From an uncultured archaeon (GTDB taxonomy: Archaea; Aenigmatarchaeota; Aenigmatarchaeia; Aenigmatarchaeales; JAHLMS01), in assembly GCA_964353775.1 (NCBI GenBank), contig CAYGWB010000006.1, positions 4,718-68,717 on the forward strand: 64,000 nt of DNA. The letters run 5' to 3'. The notes under the pieces were generated by a model that saw only the letters and a program-made list of their open reading frames with translations, made no database searches and was not told the DNA's origin. A program made the position numbers and the translations under genes. Below are positions 28,384 through 46,883 of this stretch, in pieces; position 1 is the first letter of the stretch, and each line of letters opens with the position of its first letter.

Positions 28384-28404
28384 AATAGAACTTCGGTTTG
28401 CTTA

Positions 28405-28911: not shown

Positions 28912-28959
28912 TTGATTACCTGTAAAAATATTACGTTAGAAAACTTTAAATAGGAACCT

Positions 28960-30387: not shown

Positions 30388-30465
30388 GGCATCACAGACG
30401 GTTCGTTGTTTAAATAACTCTGGCTCGCCACATTTATATTTAATTTCAACTACGTTCCACTCCTT

Positions 30466-30795
30466 CTACGCTCCTTGAACCATTCCGAATATTTCTGTTG
30501 TTTTCCTGGAATTTTCTTTGAGCTTCTCATATACTGCTTCTTCTATTTTGCCTCTTTCCAACAATTTTCTTAAACTCCTGTAATCCAAATCTTTTGTCAA
30601 TTCCCCGTCATACCATGGTAGCCCAAACATTTCTGGTGTAACCGTTCCGTGTCGCGTTTCAATATAGAATGTGCCATATTTGGCATGATGTGGTGGGGTT
30701 AAATGTATTTTTTCTTGAGGATCTGTTTTTATTATCCATTCAAAGACTACGCCACCTGTAGTATCTTTACTAGGTTTTACTTTTTGGTATCCCAT
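30466..30795 (-). CDS. Hypothetical protein (AT-rich)
   Basis: Strong SD AAGGAGGTGA before ATG 30795; overlaps upstream wHTH gene. Confidence 0.7.
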   Translation of the reverse strand: MGYQKVKPSKDTTGGVVFEWIIKTDPQEKIHLTPPHHAKYGTFYIETRHGTVTPEMFGLPWYDGELTKDLDYRSLRKLLERGKIEEAVYEKLKENSRKTTEIFGMVQGA

Positions 30796-31012
30796 TTTTG
30801 TCACCTCCTTTTCTGTAATAGATTTTTACCCTTGCATCAGGAGACATCATGAGCTCCCCTATCAGGCCGACCGCCTTTAGCCTAGAAAGCGCAAACCGCA
30901 ACGTGCGTGGTTGCAAAGCGGTTTTCTTCAGAATCTCTTTTTGGGTTGTGGGTCGAGCCTTAATCGTAGAAAGGACTGTCTGCATGCTCCTTGTCAATGC
31001 AAAGGTATTCAC
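30770..31012 (-). CDS. Small winged-helix DNA-binding protein
   Basis: TQKEILKKTALQPRTLRFALSRLKAVGLI...DARVKIY. Confidence 0.75.
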   Translation of the reverse strand: MNTFALTRSMQTVLSTIKARPTTQKEILKKTALQPRTLRFALSRLKAVGLIGELMMSPDARVKIYYRKGGDKNGIPKSKT

Positions 31013-31027
31013 CCATATTTCTCACTA

Positions 31028-31073
31028 TACTATATCTGTATACCGATATATTTAAAACTTGCAGATAGTGGCA
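31028..31073 (-). repeat. 46-bp exact direct repeat, copy 1 (TATA plus palindromic operator)
   Basis: tactatatctgtataccgatatatttaaaacttgcagatagtggca, identical at 32166-32211. Confidence 0.92.
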
Positions 31074-31074
31074 A

Positions 31075-31968
31075 TCACTCGAACAAGTCCGTACTCAAAT
31101 ATCTCTGCCCGCTGTCCGGCAGAATGGTGACGATTGTCTTGCCTGGCATGCGCTTTGACAGTTCGTTCGCTGCCCAGACGTTCGCGCCGGACGATATGCC
31201 AACCAGCAGACCTTCCTCTCGCATCAGACGATGAGTCATATTGAATGCCTGCTCATCGGTGACTGTGATTATCTCATCGAACAGCTCTGTGTCGATTATC
31301 TTCGGTATGAAGCCCTCGCCTATGCCTTGTATCTTGTGATGGCCTGCTGGTTTACCGGACATAACAGCGCTGCCAGCTGGCTCAACAACTATGATTTTGC
31401 AATCGGGCTTTTTCTTCTTCAGCCACTGTCCGATGCCCATTATCGTTCCGCCTGTTCCGACCGATGCAACGAAAGCTGAGGCGTCTGGCGCCTCCTTTAG
31501 GACTTCTTTCGCTGTCGTCCTTCGATGCGAGCGCACGTTGTCCTTGTTGCCGAACTGGTTCAGGAAGAACCAACCGTTCTGTTTAGCGAGCTGTTTGGCC
31601 TTTTTTACAGTGGCCGAGATGTCGTCTGCAGGCGTCAGAATTATTTCTGCTCCGAACGCCTTAATCAGTTTCCTGCGCTCGATGGACATCGCTTCAGGCA
31701 TGACTATCACAACATTGTAGCCTTTCACCGCAGCTACCATCGCCAGCGCGATACCAGTGTTCCCGGTAGTCGCCTCGACTATAGTGTCGCCCTTCTTCAG
31801 CTTGCCCTTCTTCTCGGCCTGTTCTATCATGAACAGCACCATACGATCCTTTATCGAGCCTGATGGGTTGTCGAACTCGACCTTCGCCAGTATATGCGGA
31901 TTTATCTTGCTAAGCCGCACCATCGGAGTGGCGTGGATGAGTTCAAGCACTGAGTTCGCTATTTTCAT
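31075..31968 (-). CDS. cysK: Cysteine synthase (O-acetylserine sulfhydrylase)
   Basis: NPSGSIKDR PLP lysine, EATTGNTGIALA, VGTGGT, HKIQGIG, GISSGAN. Confidence 0.96.
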   Translation of the reverse strand: MKIANSVLELIHATPMVRLSKINPHILAKVEFDNPSGSIKDRMVLFMIEQAEKKGKLKKGDTIVEATTGNTGIALAMVAAVKGYNVVIVMPEAMSIERRKLIKAFGAEIILTPADDISATVKKAKQLAKQNGWFFLNQFGNKDNVRSHRRTTAKEVLKEAPDASAFVASVGTGGTIMGIGQWLKKKKPDCKIIVVEPAGSAVMSGKPAGHHKIQGIGEGFIPKIIDTELFDEIITVTDEQAFNMTHRLMREEGLLVGISSGANVWAANELSKRMPGKTIVTILPDSGQRYLSTDLFE

Positions 31969-31979
31969 GTTGACCACAA

Positions 31980-32053
31980 TGGAGCCAGGGCCGAGAGTTG
32001 AACTCGGTTAACTCGCTCTGCAGGCGAGTGCATAGCCGTTCTGCCACCCCGGC
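31980..32053 (-). tRNA. tRNA-Cys(GCA)
   Basis: GCCGGGG...CTCGC-CT-GCA-GA-GCGAG...GTTCAACTC...CCA. Confidence 0.95.
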
Positions 32054-32096
32054 ATTTTAAATTCTGGATGGTTGAGACTATTAAAGTTATCAGCGC

Positions 32097-32164
32097 AGAA
32101 AAGAGCTCGGGCTGGACTATTTCCTTATTCCGTGCAAAGACGTCCACCGCTCATCAGAGCCACC
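32097..32164 (-). ncRNA. Candidate C/D-box-like K-turn small RNA
   Basis: Starts at the expected TSS of repeat copy 2; box C CTGATGA, box D variant CCGA, TGGAC/GTCCA stem, followed by T-tract. Confidence 0.4.
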
Positions 32165-32165
32165 G

Positions 32166-32211
32166 TACTATATCTGTATACCGATATATTTAAAACTTGC
32201 AGATAGTGGCA
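32166..32211 (-). repeat. 46-bp exact direct repeat, copy 2
   Basis: Identical to 31028-31073. Confidence 0.92.
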
Positions 32212-32217
32212 GCTTTA

Positions 32218-32784: not shown

Positions 32785-32788
32785 GTTT

Positions 32789-33997: not shown

Positions 33998-34001
33998 TGT
34001 A

Positions 34002-34652
34002 TCACTTGTATCTGTCCAGGAAGGGCCGTAACACGCTTCCTTCGTGGTAGCCGTCCATGCGCTGACCGTCCGGCCCTATGAACGTAGGCGTCACTGCAAT
34101 TTCATATTGCGTGACGTACTCCGGGTTTGTGTCCAGATGCATCGGTTTTACACGATAGCCTTCCATTGCCAGCGCGGTCAATACGACCGACTCCTTGGCG
34201 CACCATGAACAGCCGTCGCGGTAGAAGTACATGACAGAAGCGTTCTGGTCGAAATATATCGGCGCTGCGACCGGCTCGTTGCCGTAGGCGCAGGCCGATG
34301 TGTTTGTCTGGTTCGGCACGAATACGCAGCTGCCTCCCGGTCCTTCGCAGTTCTGCCAGACTATCAGGTTGTAGACCGAATAGCCGGTGTATGCCATGGA
34401 AATGAAGAACACTGCTACGAATACCCATGAGATGACGTTGAACTTGCGGTGTATGAAGCCGGCAAAGTGCGGCCACTTCATCAGCTTGCCGACTATGGCC
34501 GCCTTGACCTTCTTGTCAAAATCAGTGTCGCATGGTCTGAGCGTGCTCATGCGCCATACGCAACGGAACGCCTCCTTCGCGTATCCGCGGTATCGTACGC
34601 TGAACAGCCCAAGAAAGCCGAATATGACGGCAGCTATTATGCAGATTACCAT
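34002..34652 (-). CDS. Membrane protein with C-terminal thioredoxin-like CxxC domain
   Basis: Two TMs, AFRCV..LRPCDT, CSWC, VTPTF. Confidence 0.75.
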   Translation of the reverse strand: MVICIIAAVIFGFLGLFSVRYRGYAKEAFRCVWRMSTLRPCDTDFDKKVKAAIVGKLMKWPHFAGFIHRKFNVISWVFVAVFFISMAYTGYSVYNLIVWQNCEGPGGSCVFVPNQTNTSACAYGNEPVAAPIYFDQNASVMYFYRDGCSWCAKESVVLTALAMEGYRVKPMHLDTNPEYVTQYEIAVTPTFIGPDGQRMDGYHEGSVLRPFLDRYK

Positions 34653-34696
34653 ACCAGAATAACTCGAATGGAGAGCTTTTATTGTTATCGAAATTA

Positions 34697-35758
34697 TTAG
34701 CCGCAGCCGCCACTTGGCGCTGATGCGGTGTCATTTAGAGTCTGGCCGCAGAATGCTGGCGGTGTGTTGAAGGCCGCGCATATGCCTGTCTTGTATCCCT
34801 CGGCTGTTCGGGCGCCGTTGAATGTCGCGCCGTTGATTGTCAGTGTCGGGGAACCGCTCACGCCGAACAATTCGGCCAATTCCTGGTCTTCCCTCATCGC
34901 TGCCACGCCGTCTGTCGCCAGCTTCGACTCGATGGCAGAGACGCTTACGCCTGTCGCGTTCGCGGCAGTCTTCCAGCATGTCTCTATGTCGGTCAGGCTG
35001 CAGTTCGCGTTCACGTAAGAGACGTATTTCCAGAACTTTTCCGGCGATGCCTTGAAAATGAGCGCCTGTCGCATGTCCTCTTTTGCCTCGTTCGGACCGT
35101 GCAGGGACTGCAGATAGCTGTCACCGATGGCAAGGAAGTTCATGTCGGCGATCGTGTAGTTCTTGTTAGACTGCTCGTTCACGTTCGCTACATAGCTCTC
35201 GGCCTCGGTCTTGTTCATTACGCCGACTATGAAGTGCGGCTCTATTGTCGCCTTGTCACCCATTACGCTGACAACTGGCGACATCGCATCCTCGGCCGAC
35301 TTGCCGTACGGACAGAAGGACATCACGAAAAGCCTTACCAATGGCTTGTCCGTCTTAGTCGGTTCGAACGTCTCCGGCTGCGCTGGAGCCTGTTCCTTTA
35401 CCGCTGTCATGTCGTATGCCTGAGGTAAAAGTAGTTTGCCGTCCTTTGTGACGTATGCCGTATAATTGCGGTCCTGAATCCCGAAACCTATCATATACAG
35501 TCCGTTCGCTTCAGTGACATTGATCAGTTTTGCCGTCATGCCTTCGGGCAGCATGTTTGCATCAATATAGGCTATCGCTTTGCTGGCGGCTGTATCTACG
35601 CTTCCGGAATTACCGTTGGCAACAAAATTACCTGTTATGCCGCTGCCTGCGACAAATGCAACTAGCGCGATGGCAAGTATGACCGTAGATGCTATCCAGA
35701 TAGTCGGTGTCAAAGCAGCCTTCGCAGATTCCTTCTTCTCAACGTTCTCTTCTGCCAT
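34697..35758 (-). CDS. Membrane-anchored DsbA/thioredoxin-fold protein (CPYG variant)
   Basis: N-terminal TM, FVMSFCPYG, SLHG..E, GVSGSPTLTING, C-terminal GGCG. Confidence 0.8.
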   Translation of the reverse strand: MAEENVEKKESAKAALTPTIWIASTVILAIALVAFVAGSGITGNFVANGNSGSVDTAASKAIAYIDANMLPEGMTAKLINVTEANGLYMIGFGIQDRNYTAYVTKDGKLLLPQAYDMTAVKEQAPAQPETFEPTKTDKPLVRLFVMSFCPYGKSAEDAMSPVVSVMGDKATIEPHFIVGVMNKTEAESYVANVNEQSNKNYTIADMNFLAIGDSYLQSLHGPNEAKEDMRQALIFKASPEKFWKYVSYVNANCSLTDIETCWKTAANATGVSVSAIESKLATDGVAAMREDQELAELFGVSGSPTLTINGATFNGARTAEGYKTGICAAFNTPPAFCGQTLNDTASAPSGGCG

Positions 35759-35854
35759 ACAAATCTCTAATGGATGTTTGATTAATAAAGTTTATAAAGC
35801 CTATGCCTGACCTAGGACGCTTATATAATATATCAGTGCGGCCATTTCCGGACA

Positions 35855-36160
35855 TCAGGCATCGACGAATATCTGTTTGCCCTCGACCTTGACGTTGAAG
35901 GCGAGCTCGTTCAGCTTTGCCGGACCGGCAATGACCTTCCCTGTGCGTACGTCGAACTTGCTGGAATGACACGGACATGTTACCGCCGCACCTTCGAGCG
36001 TTCCGCGCGACAGCGCGCAGTGGGCATGCGTGCAGCTGTCTGCGATCGCATGCAACTTGCCGGCGACGTTCGCGATCAATACGGTCTTCCCGTTCGCCTT
36101 TACGCCTATCATCTTTCCCGTCGGCACATCGGCCGCGGCTGCAACCCTTTCAAAAGTCAT
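35855..36160 (-). CDS. Rieske [2Fe-2S] ferredoxin
   Basis: CTHAHC...CPCHSSKFDVRTG. Confidence 0.93.
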   Translation of the reverse strand: MTFERVAAAADVPTGKMIGVKANGKTVLIANVAGKLHAIADSCTHAHCALSRGTLEGAAVTCPCHSSKFDVRTGKVIAGPAKLNELAFNVKVEGKQIFVDA

Positions 36161-36168
36161 TATATCAC

Positions 36169-36414
36169 CTACTTTATTTTTAGCGCCTTCTTCAATGCTT
36201 CCTTGTCAAAGCCGACTATTATTTTGCCGTCGACCTCTATTACCGGAACGCCGGTCTGACCCGTCTTCATCATCATTTCGGCCGCGGCATCCTGGTCGTC
36301 CTCGACATTGGCCTCCTCGAAACTGATCTTTTTCTGTACCAGAAAATCCTTTGCCGTATGACAGTACGGACATGAATTGGTCACGTATATTTTTACCTTC
36401 GGTTTGGCCGTCAT
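36169..36414 (-). CDS. Glutaredoxin/NrdH-redoxin
   Basis: CPYC, GQTGVPVI, IVGFD. Confidence 0.93.
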   Translation of the reverse strand: MTAKPKVKIYVTNSCPYCHTAKDFLVQKKISFEEANVEDDQDAAAEMMMKTGQTGVPVIEVDGKIIVGFDKEALKKALKIK

Positions 36415-36480
36415 TTGAATCCCTATTATGTTAGTTCAGCAAGACCATAAATATATATTACGGCTAAAGCGATTCTAAAC

Positions 36481-38199
36481 ATGCGCTTCGTGTGGCAAAT
36501 TGGCGGCGAGGCTGGCTATGGCATACAGACTGCCGGCTATATTCTTGCAAAAGCGCTCGTACATCACGGCCTCAACGTTTTCACGAACTCAGAATATCCT
36601 TCGCTGATACGCGGCGGGCATAACACGTTCCTGATACGCGCCGAGACCGAACCGGTGTTCTCGCACTGGCATGCGACGGACCTGCTGGTCGCGCTGAACA
36701 AGGAGACCATCGACCTGCATAAGAGCGAGGTTGTGGACGGCGGCGCGATAATCTATGACGGCGCAAATGTCCAGCTGCCGGCCGGCTACGTCAGACCAGA
36801 AATAAAGCTACTGTCCGTGCCTTTGGCTGAGATCGCTATGGCTGCGGGCGATAAGATAATGGCCAACAGCGCTGCGCTCGGCGCTTCCGCGGCCGCTATG
36901 GGCGCCGACATCGAAATGCTGATAGAGATAATGGACGAGATATACGGCCTCAAGGGAAAGTTAATCGAAGAGAACTTGCAGGCAGCCAGGGCCGGCTACG
37001 AACATGTGATCAAGAACTACGGCAAGATTTTCAACATGAGTTTCGGCCAAACAAAGAAAGAGAAGATGCTTTTGACCGGGAGCGATGCGATAGCGAGCGG
37101 TGCGATAGCTGCCGGCTGCAAGTTCCTTTCACAATATCCGATGACGCCGGCTTCAGGCATACTGCACTACATGGCCAAGCGGCAACGCGACTATAATATT
37201 GTCGTCATCCAACCCGAGGATGAGATAGCCGCGATAAACATGGCCATAGGCGCGAGCTTTGCCGGCGTTAGGTCGATGACAGCGACTTCAGGCGGAGGCT
37301 ACTCGCTGATGGTTGAGGCGACCGGGCTTGCCGCTGAGACTGAGGTGCCGTTGGTCATAATCGAAGGCCAGAGGCCAGGACCTTCGACCGGCCTTCCGAC
37401 ACGGACGGAGCAGGGCGACCTGAAGTTCCTGCTCAACGCCTCGCAGGGCGAGTTCCCGCGCATCATCATTGCGCCTGGCGACGTGAAGGAATGCTTTTAT
37501 CAGACGACCGCAGCTTTCAATCTTGCCGAGCGCTGGCAGGTGCCTGTGATAGTTATGGTCGACAAGTTCCTCTGCGAGTCTTATACTTCTACTGACCGCT
37601 TCGTCAATAATATCAAAATAGACAGAGGACTGCTGCTGTCAGACGAAGAGCTGGCGGCGACGAAGGACTTCAAGCGCTATGCGATAACGCCCTACGGAGT
37701 GTCGCCTCGTTCGATACCCGGACAGCTGGGTGGCGTGCACAGGGCGGATTCGGACGAGCACGATGAGGCTGGCAATATGAACGAAGAGCCTGCCGTCCGT
37801 TCGGCGATGCAGGACAAGCGCTGGCGGAAGCTGCCGTACATACTGCGCGAGCTTCCTCCGCCAAAATTGATCGGCTCGGATGCCGGAACCATAACATTCG
37901 TCGGCTGGGGTAGCACAAAAGGACCGATACTCGATGCCATGCGACTGCTGGCTGCTGACGGAATAAAGACAAACTTTTTACAGATTTCATATCTTTCTCC
38001 GTTCCATGCAGATGCTATAACGAGCGTCCTGCAGGAATCCAAGTTCATTGTCTCCGTCGAGAACAACAAGACCGGACAGTTGGCCGACCTAATACGCGAG
38101 AAGACCGGCATAGTCATAAGGACCAGACTGAACAAATATGACGGCCGACAATTCTTCCCGGCAGAAATAGCACAGAGCATAAAGAGGGTGTTGAGATGA
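36481..38199 (+). CDS. korA: 2-oxoacid:ferredoxin oxidoreductase, alpha (gamma-alpha fused) subunit
   Basis: GGEAGYG, YPSLIRGG, YPMTPAS, EDEIAA, QRPGPSTGLPT. Confidence 0.93.
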   Translation: MRFVWQIGGEAGYGIQTAGYILAKALVHHGLNVFTNSEYPSLIRGGHNTFLIRAETEPVFSHWHATDLLVALNKETIDLHKSEVVDGGAIIYDGANVQLPAGYVRPEIKLLSVPLAEIAMAAGDKIMANSAALGASAAAMGADIEMLIEIMDEIYGLKGKLIEENLQAARAGYEHVIKNYGKIFNMSFGQTKKEKMLLTGSDAIASGAIAAGCKFLSQYPMTPASGILHYMAKRQRDYNIVVIQPEDEIAAINMAIGASFAGVRSMTATSGGGYSLMVEATGLAAETEVPLVIIEGQRPGPSTGLPTRTEQGDLKFLLNASQGEFPRIIIAPGDVKECFYQTTAAFNLAERWQVPVIVMVDKFLCESYTSTDRFVNNIKIDRGLLLSDEELAATKDFKRYAITPYGVSPRSIPGQLGGVHRADSDEHDEAGNMNEEPAVRSAMQDKRWRKLPYILRELPPPKLIGSDAGTITFVGWGSTKGPILDAMRLLAADGIKTNFLQISYLSPFHADAITSVLQESKFIVSVENNKTGQLADLIREKTGIVIRTRLNKYDGRQFFPAEIAQSIKRVLR

Positions 38200-39047
38200 C
38201 AACGCTAGAAGAGCTGAACACTAAACAGAATCCGACATGGTGCCCAGGCTGCGGGAACTATCCGATACTGCTGACGCTCAAGAACGCTATAATAGAACTA
38301 GGGCTTGAACCGCACAAGGTGCTTGTGGTCGCGGGTGTCGGCTGCCACGGACACGGGCCGCAGTGGATAAACACCTACGGCTTCCAGGGAATTCACGGAC
38401 GAGCGCTGCCGGTCGCGAGTGCTGCGAAGCTGGCCAACACCGAGCTCGAGGTGTTCGTCGAGATGGGTGACGGCGACTGCTTCGCAATCGGCACCGGTCA
38501 CTTCGTGCACGCATGCCGCCGCAACATCGACATGACAGCGATCATACACGACAATCATATTTACGGACTAACGACCGGACAGACGAGCCCGACATGCGAA
38601 AAAGGTTTTGTCAGCAAGTCAACGCCTTTCGGCTCGGTCGACTCGCCAGTAAATCCTGTCGCGCTCGCGCTTGCCGCCGGTGCGACGTTCGTTGCAAGAG
38701 GATTCGCCGGTAATGTAAAGCATCTGCAAAAACTAATCGTCGCTGCCTCGAAGCACAAGGGCTTTGCCGTGATAGATGTGATGCAGCCTTGCGTTGTCTG
38801 GAACAAGGTCAACACATACGATTTCTGGCAGACCCGACTATACGACCTCGGAGAGGCCGGGCACAATCCAGCAGACAAAGACGCGGCATGGGACGCCGCT
38901 TGGGAATGGGGCGACAAGATACCGATGGGCATATTCTACGTGGAGAACAGACAGACATTGGAAGAACAACTGCCTCAACTGGCGACACCGCTCGTCAAAC
39001 AAACGATACCGCCAGATATCAGCAAGCTTCTTGAAGAGTTCCAGTAG
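38196..39047 (+). CDS. korB: 2-oxoacid:ferredoxin oxidoreductase, beta subunit
   Basis: WCPGCG, HGRALP, GDGD, YGLTTGQTSPT, QPC. Confidence 0.93.
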   Translation: MTTLEELNTKQNPTWCPGCGNYPILLTLKNAIIELGLEPHKVLVVAGVGCHGHGPQWINTYGFQGIHGRALPVASAAKLANTELEVFVEMGDGDCFAIGTGHFVHACRRNIDMTAIIHDNHIYGLTTGQTSPTCEKGFVSKSTPFGSVDSPVNPVALALAAGATFVARGFAGNVKHLQKLIVAASKHKGFAVIDVMQPCVVWNKVNTYDFWQTRLYDLGEAGHNPADKDAAWDAAWEWGDKIPMGIFYVENRQTLEEQLPQLATPLVKQTIPPDISKLLEEFQ

Positions 39048-39049
39048 AT

Positions 39050-39946
39050 TCACTCGATCTTCTTGATATATTTGTAAGCGTTGAATGCAGCTGTCGCGCC
39101 CTCGGCCGACGCCATCAGAGCCTGTTTGTATTTCCTGTCCGTCACATCGCCGGCAGCAAAGACGCCCGCGATGTTTGTGCGGCTTTCCTTGTCGATAATT
39201 ATTTCGCCCTGATCGTTAATCTTGATTCCAAGACCTTTCGCCATCGCGGTTGTCGGTACGCCGCCTATCTCGATGAACACGCCGTCCAGTTTCAGCTCCT
39301 TGTCCGTGTCGAGCTTGATTGATTCGACCAGTTTCTTGCCCTTAATCTCGACGACGTTCGCATTTGCGATTATCTCAATCTTCTTGTTCTTCTCCACCAA
39401 TTCGGTCGTCGCTGGTTCCGCTCGGATTTTTCCCTTGCGGTAAATTATGTAGACCTTCTTCGCCCACTGCGTCAGCAGCATGGCCTCCTTTGCAGCCGCG
39501 TCCGAGCCGCCGATGACCGCAACGGTCTTTTCCCTGAAGAACGGGCCGTCGCAGGCCGCGCAGTAGCTGACGCCCTTGCCCAAGAACTCTTCTTCGCCAG
39601 GCACGCCTAGCTTGCGCCTCTCGGTCCCGGTCGCAAAAAGGACGGTCTTGCCTTTGTATACCTTCTCGCTCGTGCGGACATCGAAACCGGCATTGGTCTT
39701 CTCGACCCCGATCACGTCCTGCTCCACTATCGGAACTTTGAACTTGCTGGCATGCTCCTTCATTTTTTCGGCCAGCTCGAGTCCGCTGATGCTTGCGATA
39801 CCCGGCCAGTTCTCGATAAGGTGCGCGGTCATTATCAGCCCGCCGGGCTGTTTTGCAAGAACTATAGTATCGAGCTTGAAGCGTGCGGCGTATATCGCCG
39901 CGGAAAGACCTGCAGGCCCGCCTCCGATGATTATCAAGTCATGCAT
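39050..39946 (-). CDS. trxB: Thioredoxin-disulfide reductase
   Basis: GGGPAGLSAA, GVSYCAACDG, GGSDAA, GVFAAGD. Confidence 0.95.
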   Translation of the reverse strand: MHDLIIIGGGPAGLSAAIYAARFKLDTIVLAKQPGGLIMTAHLIENWPGIASISGLELAEKMKEHASKFKVPIVEQDVIGVEKTNAGFDVRTSEKVYKGKTVLFATGTERRKLGVPGEEEFLGKGVSYCAACDGPFFREKTVAVIGGSDAAAKEAMLLTQWAKKVYIIYRKGKIRAEPATTELVEKNKKIEIIANANVVEIKGKKLVESIKLDTDKELKLDGVFIEIGGVPTTAMAKGLGIKINDQGEIIIDKESRTNIAGVFAAGDVTDRKYKQALMASAEGATAAFNAYKYIKKIE

Positions 39947-39976
39947 AACCCATTTAACGCGCAACGGAATTTAAAC

Positions 39977-40645
39977 CTATTTGTCCAATCGCTCCAGAAT
40001 ATCAGAAACGCAGACGTTGTCAAAATCGGACAGCCTCATGGCCTTCGACGCATAATGGCTTATGATATTGTCGATGTCCAACCTTACCATTTGTTCGGCC
40101 AATATCTCAGCCTTCGCCTTTGTCTTCGGCTTCTTCGGCGTGGCCGAGCAGCAGCTGACGTGCTCTTCCGACCAAAGGCCCAAAGATTTGGATATCTCCT
40201 CGATCTCCGGCTTGTCCAGGCCGAGCAGCGGCCTGATTATCGGGATTCTGACAAAACTCGTCGTGACAGCAAGGTTGTCAAGCGTCTGGCTCGCCTTCTG
40301 CGCCAGTGCCTCGCCGGTCGCTATCGCGAACGCACCCTCTGCCTTGGCTATGCGCTCGGCCGTCTTGAACATCGCCGAACGGCATATCACGCACATGTAG
40401 TCCCTGTAGCCTTTCTCAAGAGCGGCCTTCAATACAGGCGCCCATGGAACAAGCAGCATCTCCTTGAAACCGGTCCGCTCCTTAAGGGTGCCCATAACTT
40501 TCAGCATGCGTTCGAACGAACCTTTGCAATAGAAAGGGTAGTGGCAGAAATGCAACGGCACTATTTCATATTTTCTTGCCAGCAGGGCTGCAGCGACCGG
40601 ACTGTCTATGCCGCCGCTGACCAGCACGATCACTTTTTGCTTCAT
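39977..40645 (-). CDS. thiI: Stand-alone ThiI catalytic (PP-loop) domain, Fe-S type
   Basis: SGGIDSPVA, CVIC, TGEALAQKASQTLDNL, RPLLGLDK, CC; no THUMP domain. Confidence 0.85.
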   Translation of the reverse strand: MKQKVIVLVSGGIDSPVAAALLARKYEIVPLHFCHYPFYCKGSFERMLKVMGTLKERTGFKEMLLVPWAPVLKAALEKGYRDYMCVICRSAMFKTAERIAKAEGAFAIATGEALAQKASQTLDNLAVTTSFVRIPIIRPLLGLDKPEIEEISKSLGLWSEEHVSCCSATPKKPKTKAKAEILAEQMVRLDIDNIISHYASKAMRLSDFDNVCVSDILERLDK

Positions 40646-40678
40646 ACCGCGGTTTAAGTCGGCGAAGTATATAAACGC

Positions 40679-40918
40679 TTAGCGCTTGGCTACGACGGCG
40701 TTTATCTCTGCAATCATTTTCTTTATTTGTTCCTTGCTGAGGCCGTGGGCTATCGCGCCCTGTTCTATGGTCTCGAGCGCCGCACCGCAACAACCGACGC
40801 AGTGCATGCCAGAACGCATCATTATCTCTGCGGCCTCCGGATACCTATTGACGACTTCGCCTATCAGCATCTTGGCCGTGACGGCTGTTTTTTTTTCAAC
40901 TTTCTTTTTTGTAGGCAT
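40679..40918 (-). CDS. DUF1858 domain protein
   Basis: IGEVVNRYPEAAEI..GMHCVGC...ETIEQGAIAHG. Confidence 0.88.
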   Translation of the reverse strand: MPTKKKVEKKTAVTAKMLIGEVVNRYPEAAEIMMRSGMHCVGCCGAALETIEQGAIAHGLSKEQIKKMIAEINAVVAKR

Positions 40919-40928
40919 AATTTCACCA

Positions 40929-41399
40929 TCAATGAACGTGTTCGGCAATGTCCGTCTGTTTGGTTATCTTATCATGCTCAGCCTCGAGCACATTTGGGAT
41001 AGGAAGTTTGTGTTTCATATAGTAGTTGTATATCGCTTCGTGCAACGCATCGACTGCAAGGAGCGAGCAGTGCATCTTTATCGGCGGGAGGCCGCCCAGA
41101 CCTTTGACAATATCATCCTTTGTGATCGAGAGCACTTTCTTGAGCTCCTTGCCTTTGACCAGGTCCGTTATCATGCTGGACGTGGCTATCGCGGCCACGC
41201 ATCCGTATGTCTCGAACTTGACATCGTCTATGACGGTCTTGCCGGCCCTGTTCTTCACCTTGATGTACAGCCACATCACGTCGCCGCATTTCGGGTTGCC
41301 GACACGGCCTATGCCGTCCGGCTTGGTTATTTTGCCCATGTTGTGTGGCTTCTTGAAGTGGGCCAACACCTTCTTCGTGTAGAACGACTGCGATTTCAT
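40929..41399 (-). CDS. iscU: IscU/NifU Fe-S scaffold
   Basis: GNPKCGD, FETYGC, LPPIKMHCS. Confidence 0.95.
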   Translation of the reverse strand: MKSQSFYTKKVLAHFKKPHNMGKITKPDGIGRVGNPKCGDVMWLYIKVKNRAGKTVIDDVKFETYGCVAAIATSSMITDLVKGKELKKVLSITKDDIVKGLGGLPPIKMHCSLLAVDALHEAIYNYYMKHKLPIPNVLEAEHDKITKQTDIAEHVH

Positions 41400-42550
41400 T
41401 TTCTTCCCCTCTTGAACGGCGATATCTCGCGCAGCTTCTCGACGGTCTTAGGCAGGACCTTGATGAGAGCTTCCACATCGGACTTCTTGTTGAACTTGCC
41501 GAGCGAAACGCGCAGTGAGCCGTGCGCCTTCTCATGCTTCTGGCCTAACGCCAGCAGTACATGCGAGGGCTCGAGCGACTGGCTGGAACAGGCAGAGCCG
41601 GTGCTGACAGCGAATCCGTGCATGTCCAGCTGAAGGATCAGTGACTCGCCTTCGATATAACTGAAACCGAAGTTGGCATTACCGGGCAGACGCTGCTTCG
41701 GGTGTCCGTTGAGCCAGCTGTTCGGAATCTTCAGAACTTCCCTTATCAGTCTGTCCCGCAAGGCTTTGAGATGTTTCGTGTCCGCGTTCATCTCGCGTTT
41801 GGCAATCTTGGCCGCCTCGCCGAAACCGACGATGCCCGAGATGTTCTCCGTGCCGGACCGCAGACCGTGTTCGTGGCCGCCGCCATGGGCGAGAGGCGTG
41901 AGCTTCACCCCTTTGCGGACATACAGGCAGCCGACGCCCTTCGGCCCGTGTATCTTGTGGCTAGATATTGAAAGCAAATCCATGCGCATCGTGCCGACGT
42001 CTATCGGGATCTTGCCGAACGTCTGGACCGCGTCCGTGTGGAAATATACGCGGTTCTTGCGGCACACCTCTCCTATCTTTGCGATCGGCTCGATGGTACC
42101 TATCTCATTGTTGGCGTGCATTATCGAAACGAGCAGTGTGTCCTTCCTTATTGCAAAATCGACTGCCGCCGGGTCGACCAGACCGTACTTGTCGACCGGC
42201 AGAATCGTTACATCGTAGCCTTGCTGCTTCAACCATTTGCAGGTTTCGAGCACGGAATGATGTTCGATCGCGGAAGTTATGATGTGTTTTTTGCTCGGGT
42301 TAGCGAAGGCTAGCCCCTTGATCGCAAGGTTGTTACTCTCTGTTCCGCCAGACGTGAAAATAATCTCTTCCGGCTTCGCACCAATCACAGCCGCCACATT
42401 CTCACGCGCGTTCTCCAGAGCTGTTCTCGCCTTCTGTCCGAAGACGTGCAGGCTGGATGCGTTGCCGAAGTTCTTTGAGAAATAGGGCTGCATCGACCTC
42501 AGTACCCTGGGGTCGACGGCCGTTGTCGCTGCGTTGTCCATGTACGGCAT
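41396..42550 (-). CDS. iscS: IscS/NifS cysteine desulfurase
   Basis: YMDNAATT, FTSGGTESNN, SSHKIHGPKG, STGSAC. Confidence 0.96.
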   Translation of the reverse strand: MPYMDNAATTAVDPRVLRSMQPYFSKNFGNASSLHVFGQKARTALENARENVAAVIGAKPEEIIFTSGGTESNNLAIKGLAFANPSKKHIITSAIEHHSVLETCKWLKQQGYDVTILPVDKYGLVDPAAVDFAIRKDTLLVSIMHANNEIGTIEPIAKIGEVCRKNRVYFHTDAVQTFGKIPIDVGTMRMDLLSISSHKIHGPKGVGCLYVRKGVKLTPLAHGGGHEHGLRSGTENISGIVGFGEAAKIAKREMNADTKHLKALRDRLIREVLKIPNSWLNGHPKQRLPGNANFGFSYIEGESLILQLDMHGFAVSTGSACSSQSLEPSHVLLALGQKHEKAHGSLRVSLGKFNKKSDVEALIKVLPKTVEKLREISPFKRGRK

Positions 42551-42873
42551 CAGCGACACCTCTCGCATACGTACTGCTTGAAGATGCCTTCGAAGGTGCG
42601 ACAGAACTCCGTGCAGGAACGGGCCATGGTGCGACGACCTGAGGGCGTCAGATGATATACCTTCTTTCTTCCGACCGTACGGGCGCTAACCAGTTTCATC
42701 TCCTCAAGTCTCGCCAGCACCGGATAAAGAACGCCGGCGGTTATCTTCGTTGTTTTTATGTCGTTCAGCTGCTTTATCAGCTCATAACCGTGCACGGGCT
42801 TGCGACCGAGAAGCCAAAGGACCTGCATCTGCAGCATCCCGAGGTCGATGTCACTATATCTGTGTACAGACAT
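42550..42873 (-). CDS. PadR family regulator with C-terminal Cx3Cx11Cx2C
   Basis: PVHGYELI, GVLYPVLARLE, RKKVYHLT..G; tail CTEFC...CERCR; probably leaderless. Confidence 0.88.
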   Translation of the reverse strand: MSVHRYSDIDLGMLQMQVLWLLGRKPVHGYELIKQLNDIKTTKITAGVLYPVLARLEEMKLVSARTVGRKKVYHLTPSGRRTMARSCTEFCRTFEGIFKQYVCERCR

Positions 42874-42905
42874 ATATGTATACATATATATCGGCAGTAT
42901 TTAAA
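42855..42905 (-). promoter_or_regulatory. PadR promoter: TATA plus two tandem palindromic operator-like sites
   Basis: TATATCTGTGTACAGACATA (42855-42874) and CATATATGTATACATATATA (42871-42890) downstream of TTTAAATA. Confidence 0.65.
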
Positions 42906-42972
42906 GTTAAGTTTAAATATAAAACAGTTCAATATAGCATTCCTTGTATAACACTATTAAGTTGGTCTTTGT

Positions 42973-43347
42973 ATGCCAAAATGTAGAGCTTGTAATATTA
43001 AATTAAACGATAATAATTGGTATCCTTGCAGTAAAAAGTGGTATCATCATATATGTAAAAAATGTTCAGATACAAAGTGTAAGAAATATAACAAAAAAAC
43101 AATTAAAGAAGTAAAAGCGAAGATTCTATATATACTCGGTAAGAAATGTGTGAAATGTGGATTTACAGATATCCGTGCTTTACAAATAGATCATAAGAAC
43201 GGTGGTGGAAACAAAGAAAGAAAACTTTATGATGGTTATCGCCATTATAAAAAACTTAGGGGTATGTCAGATACTGATATAAAAGCCAAATTTCAGTTAT
43301 TATGTGCTAATTGCAATTGGATAAAGAGGTCTGAAAATGACGAATAA
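42973..43347 (+). CDS. AT-rich HNH endonuclease with N-terminal Zn finger, probably mobile
   Basis: CVKCG...LQIDHKNGGG...QLLCANCN; flanked by ataacactatta / ataacgctatta. Confidence 0.82.
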   Translation: MPKCRACNIKLNDNNWYPCSKKWYHHICKKCSDTKCKKYNKKTIKEVKAKILYILGKKCVKCGFTDIRALQIDHKNGGGNKERKLYDGYRHYKKLRGMSDTDIKAKFQLLCANCNWIKRSENDE

Positions 43348-43374
43348 CGCTATTATATCTCTTTGGGTGGGTCC

Positions 43375-43752
43375 ATGGTAAAACCCTATTGTGAAATAGT
43401 CGTCCGCGAGATTCTGCCCGGCGTCAGGGCCCTTCTGGCCAACGAACTTCTAAAGAACGGCCTTACGCAGGCAAAAACAGCTGCGAAACTCGGCGTGACA
43501 CAGTCCGCTGTTTCACAGTACAGGCGGGAGCTGCGCGGCTGGAAGGTCCAGCGGATATCGAAGGACGCCGCGATAACGGATGAGATACAGAAATTCTCCA
43601 AAAAAATAATGGACAGTGACCCGGACGCGATAACCATCCACGGTCTTCTGTGCGACGTATGCAGGCTTGCCCGGATGCGCGGGCTATTGTGCGAAGACCA
43701 CAGACAATCGCTCGCGGGCCTGGACAACTGCCAGCTCTGCATGAAGAAATAA
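43375..43752 (+). CDS. Archaeal HTH regulator with Cys-rich C-terminus (COG2522-like)
   Basis: PYCE..LPGVR, GLTQAKTAAKLGVTQSAVSQY, CDVC..CEDH..CQLC. Confidence 0.85.
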   Translation: MVKPYCEIVVREILPGVRALLANELLKNGLTQAKTAAKLGVTQSAVSQYRRELRGWKVQRISKDAAITDEIQKFSKKIMDSDPDAITIHGLLCDVCRLARMRGLLCEDHRQSLAGLDNCQLCMKK

Positions 43753-43753
43753 A

Positions 43754-46700
43754 TCATTGGCTAGTCTGATACGTCTGCACGGTCTGCTTTCTCTTGAACA
43801 TTTCTTTGAGACGGTCAATCAGCTTCTTTCCGCCTGACGTCTGCTGCATGCGGTAGCCAATCTCCGGATAATAGCCGGCCTTTTGCGACGGCAGCGACGG
43901 GAGTTTGACTCCTGTCCGCAAAGCATATACGACCAGTCCGATCACTCCGACAACGGCAGCACCGCCACCGACCCATGTCCACGGTATGTTTATTGGGGTT
44001 GATTCGACCTTGGATGTCGTTAGCGCAGCCTCTGCCGCAGTCAGCGCAGCCTCGATCTGGCTGAGCAAATCGTTCGCCGTCGACCAGTCGCCACTGTCGG
44101 CAGCCTCCTGTGCTGAGTCGAGAAGTCCCTTGGCCTCCGCGAGCTTTGCGGCAGCCTCGGTTACGTTCGCGCCTGTCGCGTTCGTCTGGTTGATAAGTGA
44201 TGATATGTTCTCGTAGCGGTCGGTATAACTGACAAGGCTGCTGTTGATATCGCTCTGCGTTGCGGTGTTAGGTCTGACTACGAGCTTCGAGCTCTTCGAG
44301 CTCGAGATGCCGGTCGCCCAGCCGACAAAGCTCAAGCTGTAATTCCCTATCGTAGAGTTAGCCGGAACTGAGAACGTGACCGTCCATGAGCCCGATTGGT
44401 TCTTTGGCAGGCTTACGGCCGCTGTAGGACTAATCGATACCCAGCTCGAGTCAACGCCAGTTACGTTGAGTCGCACGTCGCTGAGCGTGCTTGATCCAGT
44501 GTTCTTTATGGTGATGCTTGCGGTCGCGGAGCCTCCCTGCAGGACTGTCGTCTCCAGAGGAGCTGTAACCAGGAGGGACTTGTTTGTGGTCGTAGTAGTG
44601 TTGCCTGAAAACTTCTTGTCGGAACTGCTTTGCTGTGTGTCGGCCGTGGTTATGTTGAAAGCGAAAGACAGGCTCTGCGTGTCCCACTTGGCCGCAGTTG
44701 AACCGGAATAGTTGCTGGCAACTGCGGTTATGTTAAGGCTGCATGTGCCGGTCGTTGTGTTGAACTTCCAACTTGTTGAGTTGATACCGCCAAGAGCCGT
44801 GAGAGTTCCCAACTGAACAGTTGTTGTGTTTGAATAACCTATTTCGTTCGTAAGAGTTAAACATGAACCGACAATCGATTCGGTGACGTTTACGTTGAAT
44901 GCATTAACAGAACCGTAGTTCGCCACAGTGACATAGCAGTATGTCGGTGTTCCGGCAGTGGTGCTCAGAGGCACACAGCTTGCCGCAAGCCTCAGTGCGG
45001 TCTGGCTGACGTTAAGCGTTCGGTTGGCCGTGGCGTTGTTCTTGTCGGTCGTGTTCTTGTCCTGGGCATAGATGTAATAGTCGTATAAACCGCCAAGCAT
45101 CGTGCTCGGTATGGTCGCGTTTACGATGTTGTAGGCGTCCGTCACGTTGAAATTCGTTATGCTCGCGTTAGCGAGCGTGGTATTCCCAAAGTATGTCATG
45201 TTTTTGTGTGTGATCCAGACCGTGAAATTGGATGCGTTCAGTCCTGTCACGTTTGTGCCGTTCTGATATTTTACGCTGACGCTCGCATTGGTGTTGTTTC
45301 CAGGAACAGTCCATGTTGTTCCTGTCTGGTCGGTGATATTCGTTATGTTTACGTCCAGTTGGTTTGTCAGATTGACAAGCATGTCGAGCCTGAAATGCCT
45401 GTACGGGAAGCCGTTCGCGGTCGTGATGAGGGCCGAACCAGTGTACGAGCCTTGCGTGTTGTTCGTGTTGACTGTGTTGATTGTGATGTTGATTTGCGAA
45501 CTGTTCGCGGTGCCGTTGAAAACAGTCGGATTGGTCGGACCTATTGTGTAGTTGATCAATCTGTTACCGTTCGTAAGATTCGAACTTCCGATTACGGGTG
45601 CTCCAAGGTAGACCGCGACCGCGCCGACACCTACAGTAGGTATGTGGACATAGCTCACGCCGAACGTGGTGCCGTCCCAAAGAACGGCGGTCTGGCTCTC
45701 GTTCAGTGTAGTAGTGTTGCTCTGTGAAGAATTGCTAGAGTTGCTTATCGTCATGTTGGCCGTCCGCACGTCACCGACAGTGCCCACACTGTTCAGATTT
45801 ACGACATAGCTGGCGTTTGACGTGGTGTTGACGAGCGTATAGCTCGAGCCGACGTTAACGACCTGTGAGCTTGGTGAGTTGAGCGTTATGTTGCTTACGG
45901 TCAGATTGTATCCGGCCGTGTTGTTGATAGTGAAACCGATTGTCCGGGTGGTGTTGAAACCGATGTTTTCCTTTACGGTTATGTTGGTTGTCCAGTCGTA
46001 CGGCATCTGATCGAATGTTCCGTTCGGGTAGGCCGTGGTGTTGACCATCAGAGAGGCCTGCAGCAGTTCGACCGTTCCGTTGAAGGTTATGTTGCCTGTC
46101 GTAGTTGTGTTGCTGACGCGGAGACAGGAAAAGTTGGCAAGCGGGAAATACGACTGTATGAAAGTGGTCGTGTTGCTGGTCGCGTTCAATGTTGCAGTGC
46201 CTTCGTATGAAGTGCACGCGGTATCGCCAGCCCATCCGAACGTCAGACCTTCACTGCTTATGTTGATGATATTGAACCTGAGCCCAGCGACATTACTTGC
46301 TAGCGACCTGTTGAAGAAGAATAATTCGTTGGTCGCGTTTGTCACGATGCCTGTTATGTTGCCAACAGCACCGGTCGGTGTTGCCGCGAATGTTATTGGC
46401 ACGTCGACGTAAACGCTAAAGGTTGTTATGTTCTCGGAAGAATTGGTCGAGTTTGCTATCGTCAGATTTCCAGAGTATTTGCCTGCCACAACGCCCGTGG
46501 TATTGGCAAGCAGCGTGATGTTCAGGTAACTTTTGTTAGCGACAAGAATGAAGTTGTTGTCATTGTCCGTGCCATTGTTTACGGAGAAATTGATTGTATA
46601 GGAAAGCAAATTTTTCAGAGTGCCTGTCGTGTTTGTTATACTGACGGTGGTATTGTACGTCTGATTGTTGTATAACGTGATGTTCCCGGAAAATGCGTTG

Positions 46701-46840
46701 GTCCAGTTTAAGTAGAGCGGGCTGCTTGATGCGGTGAACTCGCCGCTCGTGCTTATGATGGTTGCTGCGGAAACAAGGATTGCCATGGCTGCGAGTATCA
46801 TCAAAGTGGATGCAAACAGGGCGGACGACCTTAATCTCAT
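43754..46840 (-). CDS. Large Asn/Thr-rich cell-surface glycoprotein (Ig-like domains, helical stalk, C-terminal TM)
   Basis: Signal peptide, dense N-x-S/T sequons, ITIKNTG-type Ig domain, TM WVGGGAAVVGVIGLVVY. Confidence 0.85.
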   Translation of the reverse strand: MRLRSSALFASTLMILAAMAILVSAATIISTSGEFTASSSPLYLNWTNAFSGNITLYNNQTYNTTVSITNTTGTLKNLLSYTINFSVNNGTDNDNNFILVANKSYLNITLLANTTGVVAGKYSGNLTIANSTNSSENITTFSVYVDVPITFAATPTGAVGNITGIVTNATNELFFFNRSLASNVAGLRFNIINISSEGLTFGWAGDTACTSYEGTATLNATSNTTTFIQSYFPLANFSCLRVSNTTTTGNITFNGTVELLQASLMVNTTAYPNGTFDQMPYDWTTNITVKENIGFNTTRTIGFTINNTAGYNLTVSNITLNSPSSQVVNVGSSYTLVNTTSNASYVVNLNSVGTVGDVRTANMTISNSSNSSQSNTTTLNESQTAVLWDGTTFGVSYVHIPTVGVGAVAVYLGAPVIGSSNLTNGNRLINYTIGPTNPTVFNGTANSSQINITINTVNTNNTQGSYTGSALITTANGFPYRHFRLDMLVNLTNQLDVNITNITDQTGTTWTVPGNNTNASVSVKYQNGTNVTGLNASNFTVWITHKNMTYFGNTTLANASITNFNVTDAYNIVNATIPSTMLGGLYDYYIYAQDKNTTDKNNATANRTLNVSQTALRLAASCVPLSTTAGTPTYCYVTVANYGSVNAFNVNVTESIVGSCLTLTNEIGYSNTTTVQLGTLTALGGINSTSWKFNTTTGTCSLNITAVASNYSGSTAAKWDTQSLSFAFNITTADTQQSSSDKKFSGNTTTTTNKSLLVTAPLETTVLQGGSATASITIKNTGSSTLSDVRLNVTGVDSSWVSISPTAAVSLPKNQSGSWTVTFSVPANSTIGNYSLSFVGWATGISSSKSSKLVVRPNTATQSDINSSLVSYTDRYENISSLINQTNATGANVTEAAAKLAEAKGLLDSAQEAADSGDWSTANDLLSQIEAALTAAEAALTTSKVESTPINIPWTWVGGGAAVVGVIGLVVYALRTGVKLPSLPSQKAGYYPEIGYRMQQTSGGKKLIDRLKEMFKRKQTVQTYQTSQ

Positions 46841-46883
46841 CAAATCACAAGTCTGTTATTGGCAGTGGTATATAAAAACTTTA

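Follow-up and report, generated by a model that had tools for sequence, protein, structure and literature searches.

A cysteine-tailed PadR protein at the head of archaeal Fe-S assembly operons is a predicted feedback regulator of cluster biogenesis

The locus described here comes from an uncultured archaeon of the Aenigmatarchaeota and centres on a small PadR-family regulator gene that heads an iron-sulfur (Fe-S) assembly operon. The window, meaning the whole stretch of 64,000 nucleotides (nt) that was analysed, corresponds to C6:4718-68717 of a 755,503-base genome in seven contigs, with a completeness of 90.9%. The regulator gene (42550..42873, minus strand) encodes a 107-residue protein of the PadR-s2 type. 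The protein ends in SCTEFCRTFEGIFKQYVCERCR, which sets four cysteines in the order C87-x3-C91-x11-C103-x2-C106 (Cx3Cx11Cx2C). Its TGA stop codon and the ATG of iscS share the A at 42550 (TGATG), an overlap of 1 nt. A preliminary description of this DNA had noted both the tail and the overlap, and the letters and open reading frames (ORFs) agree with it. Family alignment places the start at the second ATG, 42873 (MSVHRY...), rather than at 42885.

Downstream on the same strand lies the gene for a cysteine desulfurase of the IscS/NifS type (41396..42550; Pfam Aminotran_5, E 3.8e-93; NCBIfam NifS TIGR03402, 560.8 bits, cut-off 530.75), followed by that for an IscU/NifU-type scaffold (40929..41399; Pfam NifU_N, 9e-43; NCBIfam NifU_clost, 168.1 bits, under the cut-off of 187.9). 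Next come genes for a DUF1858 protein (40679..40948; Pfam DUF1858, 4.6e-16), a ThiI-like PP-loop ATPase (39977..40645; Pfam ThiI, 1.4e-44) and, as the final gene of the cluster, a thioredoxin-reductase-like flavoprotein (39050..39964; Pfam Pyr_redox_2, 5.7e-48), all minus-strand and in the order found at the sister locus L017. Because this genome, at the completeness given, holds no sufB, IscS-IscU is its sole detected assembly system.

Membership of the PadR family follows from a match over a curated cut-off: PF03551 (PadR) aligns with residues 22-88 of ORF 42550-42885 (minus strand) at E 5.2e-17 and 62.1 bits, the cut-off being 27. NCBIfam PadR models also match the regulator, all under their cut-offs. 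At E 0.01, a Pfam scan returns just PadR, F-93_WHD and Penicillinase_R, and no Rrf2 domain, while the ESM Atlas yields generic archaeal PadR clusters and nothing else. A word-indexed search of 5.8 billion proteins recovered only 11 relatives, and an exhaustive search by profile yielded 5,367 PadR-like sequences at E <=0.001, of which only 61 reach <=1e-10 and 8 reach <=1e-30.

The family is tied to Fe-S assembly wherever it was sampled. In GTDB genomes, 22 loci encode a relative, and 21 remain once a 32-residue fragment at a contig end (L038) is dropped; among the 371 genomes of the phylum, 44 match at E <=4.8e-40, the next best match standing at 7.5e-29. The linkage sample combined the window, the 21 GTDB loci and the 28 best phylum loci beyond G000 and G001, giving 50 loci, or 37 after removal of 13 duplicates. 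Record labels of family loci include Aenigmatarchaeota, Woesearchaeota, Micrarchaeota and Candidatus Hydrothermarchaeum profundi, and the nearest named relative, L017, is labelled Candidatus Aenigmatarchaeota. The preliminary description had proposed looking for linkage of Cys-tailed PadR orthologues to iscS or sufS in related archaea. The orthologue is in fact the first gene of an Fe-S assembly operon in all 37 non-redundant loci, with the next same-strand match -24 to 424 nt downstream: IscS in 14, IscU in one and SufC, mostly with SufB after it, in 22. Operons of the iscS/iscU type thus number 15 and those of the sufCB(DS) type 22. In L021, sufC, sufB and sufD exceed their NCBIfam cut-offs and sufS, clipped by the locus end, reaches 417.7 against 475.1; in L030, sufC and sufB exceed theirs and sufD, at 206.7, stays under the 222 required.

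This linkage distinguishes the family from other PadR proteins of the same genomes. Among 20 control loci of other PadR paralogues, none has IscS, IscU or SufB, and one has a generic ABC ATPase of 30% identity. The second PadR paralogues of these genomes, which match at E about 1e-25, form a different subfamily without linkage to Fe-S genes. In a tree of 35 rows, from which the truncated L026 and L032 were omitted, the 21 suf-linked proteins fall into a single group (support 87/82). A single switch of operon type is therefore sufficient.

The promoter of the regulator gene carries the second line of evidence. The TATA box TTTAAATA (42898..42905, minus strand) stands 25-32 nt 5' of the ATG, a spacing that leaves no room for a leader, so the mRNA is presumably leaderless or nearly so. 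Two tandem 20-base-pair (bp) palindromes, both of them predicted operators, occupy the space between the TATA box and the sixth codon and share 4 nt. O1 (42855..42874), TATGTCTGTACACAGATATA on the minus strand and TATATCTGTGTACAGACATA in plus coordinates, spans -1 to +19 and includes the ATG at 42871-42873. O2 (42871..42890), TATATATGTATACATATATG on the minus strand and CATATATGTATACATATATA in plus coordinates, lies between the TATA box and the start codon. The preliminary description had placed these palindromes over the start region, where they indeed lie, with the start codon now moved from 42885 to 42873. Judging from established archaeal promoter architecture, a protein on O2/O1 would cover the initiation site.

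Comparison across the family shows that this arrangement is conserved. The consensus of 20 aligned family promoters reads TTTAAATAt.T.acTATGTATat.tACcgATATGTCTGT..AcaGACATA, and the O2 family consensus is TATGTATatnTACcgATATG, at -17 to +3. Counting the 35 loci with a recognisable start, a TATA match of at least 7/8 to TTTAAATA begins at -33 to -30 in 27. The O1 family consensus TATGTCNGTNNACNGACATA, at -1 to +19, is found with at most 3 mismatches over its 16 specified positions in 27 of the same 35 (0 mismatches in 3 loci, 1 in 13, 2 in 5, 3 in 6, 4 in 1, 5 in 4 and 6 in 3). The background rate at that threshold is 1.9e-4 of 180,988 positions, which amounts to little more than the true sites themselves. 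PadR operators are described as ATGT/ACAT inverted repeats with a spacer of about 8-10 nt (PMC3506622), and the ATGT-N10-ACAT consensus of O1 has this geometry, as expected of a PadR site. A 20-mer pattern at <=3 mismatches gives 9 strand-wise matches in 5 places of the window, against 0.05 expected (standard deviation 0.22) and with none of 100 shuffles reaching 9, in a chance test that is circular because the pattern was derived from the same sites.

Codon usage shows that O1 is conserved as DNA. The serine at codon 2 is TCN in 35/35 loci, against 107/192 serine codons in the gene bodies, and codon 5 ends in A in 35/35, residue changes included. Arginine at codon 5 is NGA in 29/29 (81/245 in gene bodies), and histidine at codon 6 is CAT in 22/30 (45/108). 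Because codon choice is biased and residues 1-7 are modelled as disordered, the constraint acts on the DNA, with the operator dictating the first codons. A merely conserved N-terminal peptide, the other explanation considered for O1, is ruled out by this codon analysis.

The cysteine tail is the third conserved element. C87 and C103-x2-C106 are kept in 36 of the 37 loci, down to 45-50% identity, the exception being L032, which is without the tail. Many suf-linked proteins have histidines right after CxxC. In a wider alignment of 36 proteins, reaching down to 25% identity, G79, C103 and C106 are the only invariant positions.

Structural models place C87 and C91 in the predicted dimer interface. 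In the AlphaFold2 model (mean predicted local distance difference test (pLDDT) score 87.7; predicted template-modelling score 0.78), helices 13-24, 29-39 and 46-58 and a wing at 62-75 form a winged helix. A long helix (77-93) bears C87 and C91, a short one follows (95-101), and CxxC lies within the final six residues; residues 1-7 have pLDDT <50. With its 107 residues, winged helix-turn-helix (wHTH) fold and short C-terminal dimerisation helices, the modelled protein corresponds to the PadR-s2 type of about 110 residues. Foldseek agrees, its best matches being PadR-s2 structures, with 4esf first (E 6.2e-6, TMq 0.71), then RosR and LmrR, at TMq 0.62-0.76 overall. No solved chain aligns with the family profile past position 103 of 118, so no solved PadR covers the Cys tail; the window protein extends to about 111.

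A homodimer prediction, which carried one [4Fe-4S] cluster along unscored, supports association of two regulator chains. The model scores 0.57, against 0.02 for the best of three controls, and in benchmarking this mark was attained by 20 of 30 proteins whose solved structure pairs two copies of one chain, as against 1 of 23 whose solved structure is a lone chain. Contact agreement between runs is at least 79% and partner pLDDT at least 80, although this pass may be owed to likeness with PadR dimers that are already solved. The modelled interface comprises residues 13, 16-17, 20, 39-41, 87-98 and 100-102. C87 contacts partner residues 97, 100 and 101, and C91 contacts partner residues 97, 98, 101 and 102, adjoining the partner's C103. 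The model thus suggests two symmetric inter-subunit sites, in each of which the CxxC of one chain would join the helix cysteines of its partner. With two such sites, cofactor occupancy would couple to dimer geometry.

Taken at the level of sequence comparison, a feedback regulator of Fe-S assembly resembling IscR and SufR in action, related to neither and built on a PadR scaffold, is a well-supported interpretation. Regulators of this class head isc or suf operons and have operators over their own promoters, as this one is predicted to have, and its action would be repression. More specifically, the protein is probably an autoregulated dimeric PadR-s2-type repressor dedicated to Fe-S biogenesis that senses cluster status through its Cys site. 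Two dimers would bind the overlapping ATGT-N10-ACAT-type operators O2 and O1, from just past the TATA box to codon 6, and would block RNA polymerase at the padR-iscS-iscU-DUF1858-thiI-like-trxR promoter. The C-terminal cysteines would form the sensor, C87 (with C91) on the dimerisation helix of one subunit pairing with C103-x2-C106 of the other. This site most likely holds an Fe-S cluster supplied by the very machinery under control, and the loaded dimer would repress. When clusters become scarce or damaged, the site would empty, the dimer would loosen and the operon would be switched on.

The ISC and SUF machineries are not related to each other, and what unites them is their product. A cluster is favoured over zinc or a thiol switch because the family is tied exclusively to these two machineries, because three ligands are fixed and a fourth is variable, and because IscR and SufR provide precedent. 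On this weighing a cluster sensor seems probable, a thiol or persulfide switch unlikely and structural zinc slightly less likely still.

Several observations weigh against this interpretation. The 37 linked loci are not 37 independent events. The conservation of the cysteines, which the preliminary description had made a test of its proposal, holds for C87, C103 and C106 and fails at C91: 9 of the 15 isc-linked proteins have a cysteine there, against 0 of the 22 that are suf-linked (serine in 13, threonine in 8, valine in 1); elsewhere in the family this position is S, T, V or I. More distant relatives retain just CxxC. The confidently placed contacts of the dimer model do not include C103 or C106. 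Metal or cluster chemistry cannot be read from sequence, from which the cluster role is inferred, and the four cysteines might just as well be zinc ligands or disulfide partners.

A second promoter region may extend the reach of the regulator. The preliminary description had pointed to a related 20-mer near 31-32 kb and proposed a regulon joining Fe-S assembly, cysteine synthesis and tRNA-Cys. That 20-mer, TATATCTGTATACCGATATA, is exact at 31031-31050 and 32169-32188, abutting or overlapping a TATA box, as described. Both palindromes fall within one 51-nt direct repeat (31023-31073 and 32161-32211) whose copies, TATA box included, are 96% identical. Copy R1 (31023..31073, minus strand), a candidate second target, forms the promoter, TATA box plus palindrome 31031-31050, of an 80-residue wHTH gene and an overlapping 112-residue ORF. 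The 80-residue protein (30770..31012, minus strand; HTH_24 at E 0.094, no Pfam match at E 0.001) is a rival candidate binder of the repeat palindrome, referred to below as R. Copy R2 (32161..32211, minus strand) lies upstream of a 112-nt leader, tRNA-Cys and cysK. The tRNA-Cys gene (GCA anticodon; 31980..32053, minus strand) was called by ARAGORN and scores 53.3 bits with the Rfam tRNA model, and cysteine synthase CysK (31075..31977, minus strand) scores 392.5 bits with NCBIfam cysK TIGR01139 (cut-off 350.95). Since cysK begins 3 nt after the tRNA gene, leaving no promoter room, the two must be co-transcribed. The regulator probably also binds this duplicated promoter of the tRNA-Cys-cysK co-transcript and of the wHTH/orphan pair, which would tie cysteine supply to Fe-S demand.

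Two related metagenome contigs (L111, 1457-2438; L112) share the tRNA-Cys/cysK layout, which is also seen in L064. Their gene order is tRNA-Cys-cysK-R1-wHTH-ORF-CysRS, with wHTH 87%, CysK 83% and CysRS (cysteinyl-tRNA synthetase) 83% identical, and their R palindrome is identical. They hold just the copy upstream of the wHTH gene, and R2 is absent from both. At about 1245-1300 of L111, the place of R2 on the 5' side of the conserved leader is taken by a TATA box and, after it, a perfect palindrome of 16 nt, CAAGAAATATTCTTTG, which may be another regulator's site. Because these contigs have another promoter there, R2 is a recent promoter replacement by duplication. The repeats were also considered as attachment sites of an integrated element, an idea rejected because there is no integrase, the related contigs have R1 only and promoter duplication explains the arrangement better. 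In the sister genome G001, the order is SufS-DsbA-tRNA-Cys-CysRS, with cysS 14 nt after tRNA-Cys.

Other features of this region deserve a brief description. The 112-nt leader (32054-32165, minus strand) is conserved at 1340-1456 of L111, with the blocks GGTGGAC.TCTTTGC and TTCTGCG. An Rfam search over 28000-44000 at E up to 1 returned tRNA-Cys alone, so the leader matches no known RNA family, and its fold, from two sequences, is weak (12 pairs, -8.4 kcal/mol). Just upstream of tRNA-Cys, 32218-34652 (minus strand) encodes three proteins: a SufS-family cysteine desulfurase, which scores 428.3 bits where the cut-off is 475.1, one with a DsbA-like thioredoxin fold, and a membrane protein whose C-terminus weakly resembles thioredoxin. 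As the genome has no sufB, this second desulfurase would work without a SUF scaffold.

Genome-wide scans give R a mixed standing. The pattern scan that the preliminary description had suggested finds 3 exact sites in the whole genome (755,503 bases), 4 at <=2 mismatches and 5 at <=3. A matrix built from O1 and O2 of 33 loci outside the genus ranks the regulator's own O1 first (24.4), R1 and R2 next (23.0 each), then its own O2 (20.7) and C5:137885 (17.9), against a reversed-genome control maximum of 19.7. The last of these, the third operator-like place in the genome (G000:C5:137885-137904; L061, 1501-1520), scores inside the control range and consists of the palindrome TGTATCAGTTTACCGATATA right after a TATATAAA box, flanked by small unannotated ORFs (34, 58 and 35 residues) near a nitroreductase gene and FtsZ. 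Of the hits with 2-3 mismatches in other family genomes, the three inspected (L042, L044, L053) lie in coding sequence or are without a TATA box and were judged to be chance. In G001, the pattern count is 10 against 9 in the control; of the hits inspected there (L056, L058, L062), L058 comes after a TATA box and precedes a thermosome gene. The suf-linked promoters L024, L097-L099, L102 and L104 resemble R in having an operator that overlaps the TATA box.

The case for a wider regulon meets five difficulties. R1 and R2 are one duplication, not independent sites. The corresponding locus of the sister genome G001 is without the repeat, cysK or the wHTH gene. Matrices built from O1 only give R 14.0-15.8, where reversed-genome controls reach 16.4-17.8; with one such matrix R1 has 14.0 against a control maximum of 17.8. 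In five other family genomes, operators with 0 mismatches occur solely at the regulator's own promoter. Finally, the wHTH protein has homologues in 10 of the order's 41 other genomes, and those in G030 and G034 (47-52% identity) have a different palindrome, TATAACGGCGTTATA, abutting the TATA box of the homologous promoter. Both of these promoters (L066, L067) read TTGCC..., TATA box, TATAACGGCGTTATA, AGGTGA and a GTG start, and TATAACGGCGTTATA is probably the wHTH family's own operator.

An alternative for the regulon alone is that R is the operator of the adjacent, autoregulating 80-residue wHTH protein and PadR controls its own operon only. Such autoregulation is the default expectation because the homologues carry TATAACGGCGTTATA, at the place corresponding to R, in genomes where the searches gave no Cys-tailed PadR. 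The R palindrome also travels with the wHTH gene in the related contigs, does not rise above control with O1-only matrices, and elsewhere the PadR operator is confined to its own promoter. The details of R itself speak for PadR instead. R has the 10+10 geometry of PadR operators, not the 7+1+7 of the palindrome of the wHTH homologues. Its arm TATATCTGTA equals the right arm of O1 in the sister genome, and 8 bases of its other arm, ATATCGGT, match the reverse complement of ACCGATAT, the right half of O2, which is conserved across the family. Moreover, its score of 23.0 exceeds the control maximum of 19.7 with a matrix drawn from outside the genus. Wholly wHTH-borne control of R is a genuine contender that we nevertheless doubt, and from these sequence features we lean towards PadR binding to R. 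What the preliminary description proposed as an IscR analogue is strongly supported as a regulator of Fe-S assembly, by operon linkage and conserved operators. Its cysteine and tRNA-Cys regulon is weaker: the O1+O2 matrix speaks for it, and the single duplication, the gap in G001, the wHTH rival and the O1-only scores do not.

Two other groups of cysteine-bearing PadR proteins occur among the relatives. In a sister subfamily (L105-L110, L003), one cysteine belongs to an N-terminal GCDMRG motif and another, in YFCRAF, occupies the C91 position of the dimerisation helix, and the CxxC tail is absent. The subfamily lies near flavin-reductase-like genes (MDLPWG...) in 4 of 6 loci and may sense through another thiol or metal chemistry. 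PadR proteins of about 140 residues from the same order (L004-L006, L008), 30-37% identical to the window protein, end in a CxHCGC...CCxxC tail, which we take to be TRASH-like; in L004 the gene adjoins one for a heavy-metal P-type ATPase. They look like metal-sensing PadR fusions, and the window regulator differs from them in both motif and neighbourhood.

For the cysteines of the window regulator, the better placed of the two alternatives to a cluster retains the same repressor and operators and makes the site a metal-free thiol switch, in which CxxC and C87 form a disulfide or persulfide under the influence of oxidants or of sulfane sulfur from the desulfurase. The invariant element is CxxC, a classic redox motif, and both operon types include a cysteine desulfurase, IscS in one and SufS at the end of suf operons in the other. 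The window operon closes with a thioredoxin-reductase-like gene, and the flavin-reductase-like neighbours of the GCDMRG/YFCRAF subfamily, with its other Cys pair, hint at thiol chemistry in related PadR proteins. Set against this, three conserved cysteines and a variable fourth would fit a mixed-ligand cluster site, and a pure oxidant sensor needs no strict tie to Fe-S operons such as that seen in 37 of 37 loci. The dedicated Fe-S regulators IscR and SufR, moreover, hold clusters (PMC8593673). We consider the thiol switch unlikely.

The remaining alternative concerns the role of the tail in holding the dimer together. Cys-rich tails of small DNA-binding proteins are often zinc sites, and the CxHCGC-tailed PadR proteins of the same order, of which the one in L004 neighbours a heavy-metal ATPase gene, show that PadR proteins with metal-binding tails exist here. 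These points could make a case for structural zinc stapling the dimer of a plain autoregulator or of a responder to iron, cysteine or another small ligand, but structural zinc sites usually keep four ligands where the fourth here varies (C in 9/37), and zinc gives no reason for the exclusive Fe-S operon link (37/37 against 0/20 other PadR loci), which makes this reading rather improbable.

Comparison with known systems supports the cluster-sensing interpretation of the regulator and shows where it departs from them. IscR has C-terminal cysteines as conserved cluster ligands. In bacteria, IscR and SufR are Fe-S-holding regulators dedicated to Fe-S biogenesis, and holo-SufR represses the suf locus and its own expression through a conserved palindrome (PMC8593673). 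IscR parallels what is proposed for the regulator: it is a small winged-helix dimer encoded by the first gene of an iscSU operon, autoregulated and with C-terminal cysteines, and its cluster occupancy feeds back on Fe-S assembly (PMC8593673). It differs in having an Rrf2 rather than a PadR fold and another Cys spacing. The predicted operator of the regulator follows archaeal promoter logic, lying between TATA box and start codon, unlike that of IscR, and the IscR regulon is broad whereas the PadR regulator seems local in the five genomes searched. SufR likewise is a dedicated autoregulated suf repressor with a C-terminal [4Fe-4S] Cys site and a palindrome in suf promoters (PMC8593673), and 22 of the 37 family members head sufCB(DS) operons, which parallels its control of suf. 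Cyanobacterial SufR, however, has a DeoR-type domain and a C-X12-C-X13-C-X14-C motif (PMC8593673), so the regulator, with its PadR domain, its C-x3-C-x11-C-x2-C tail and the family-wide C-x15-C-x2-C, is not a SufR.

Among PadR proteins, the PadR-s2 repressors LmrR and bcPadR1/2 share with the regulator a length of about 110 residues, a wHTH with one dimerisation helix, an ATGT/ACAT repeat and, as predicted for the regulator, autoregulation (PMC3506622). Their ligands, drugs or unknown compounds, are sensed at or close to the centre of the dimer, and they have neither the Cys tail nor a link to Fe-S assembly. The third structure in the fold search, RosR of Halobacterium salinarum (6qfd), is an archaeal regulator. 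RosR is not known to sense through cysteines or a cluster, nor to have a tie to Fe-S assembly genes. It is presented as an oxidative-stress regulator (PMC4287449). The review PMC8593673 does not mention PadR. Full-text literature searches, whose scope lay outside subscription journals and supplements, found neither a PadR protein tied to Fe-S assembly nor a dedicated archaeal regulator of Fe-S biogenesis.

A feedback regulator heading an Fe-S assembly operon is thus a known principle, and what would be new here, judging from the sequences, is the PadR scaffold, the domain of life and an operator that takes in the start codon. As a tentative extension, which we offer with reserve, the regulator may be the first dedicated archaeal Fe-S-biogenesis regulator and a new cluster-sensing class: a PadR dimer stapled by two inter-subunit Fe-S sites (Cx3C plus CxxC), with an operator in its own first six codons, one ISC/SUF operon switch in its history and recruitment to tRNA-Cys-cysK through the 51-nt duplication. 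It would then represent a third independent invention of the Fe-S feedback idea, on another scaffold, and in very small genomes the Cys-tailed PadR may be the sole such control. With a protein of 107 residues and a defined 36-bp operator region, the prediction is directly testable in vitro. The promoter also offers a clean example of a regulatory site that would dictate the first codons of its own target gene.

The genes on the other side of the regulator add some minor observations. Between the PadR gene and a divergent HTH gene, 42973-43347 (plus strand) holds a 124-residue Cys-rich ORF related to phage HNH endonuclease families (phrog_2255, 2.5e-11). It is not at the corresponding place in the sister genome (L002) and looks recently inserted. 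The divergent gene, at 43363-43752 (plus strand), encodes a 129-residue protein with an HTH_3 domain (1.6e-5) and a Cys-rich C-terminus (C-x2-C ... C ... C-x2-C), which may be another metal- or redox-dependent regulator; it is 77% identical in the sister locus L017 and does not stand beside PadR in the other loci compared. Beyond it, 43754-46843 (minus strand) encodes a protein of 1029 residues with a signal-like N-terminus, a C-terminal membrane anchor and abundant N-x-S/T sequons. The product is probably exposed at the cell surface and heavily glycosylated, and a homologous gene stands at the corresponding place in the sister locus.

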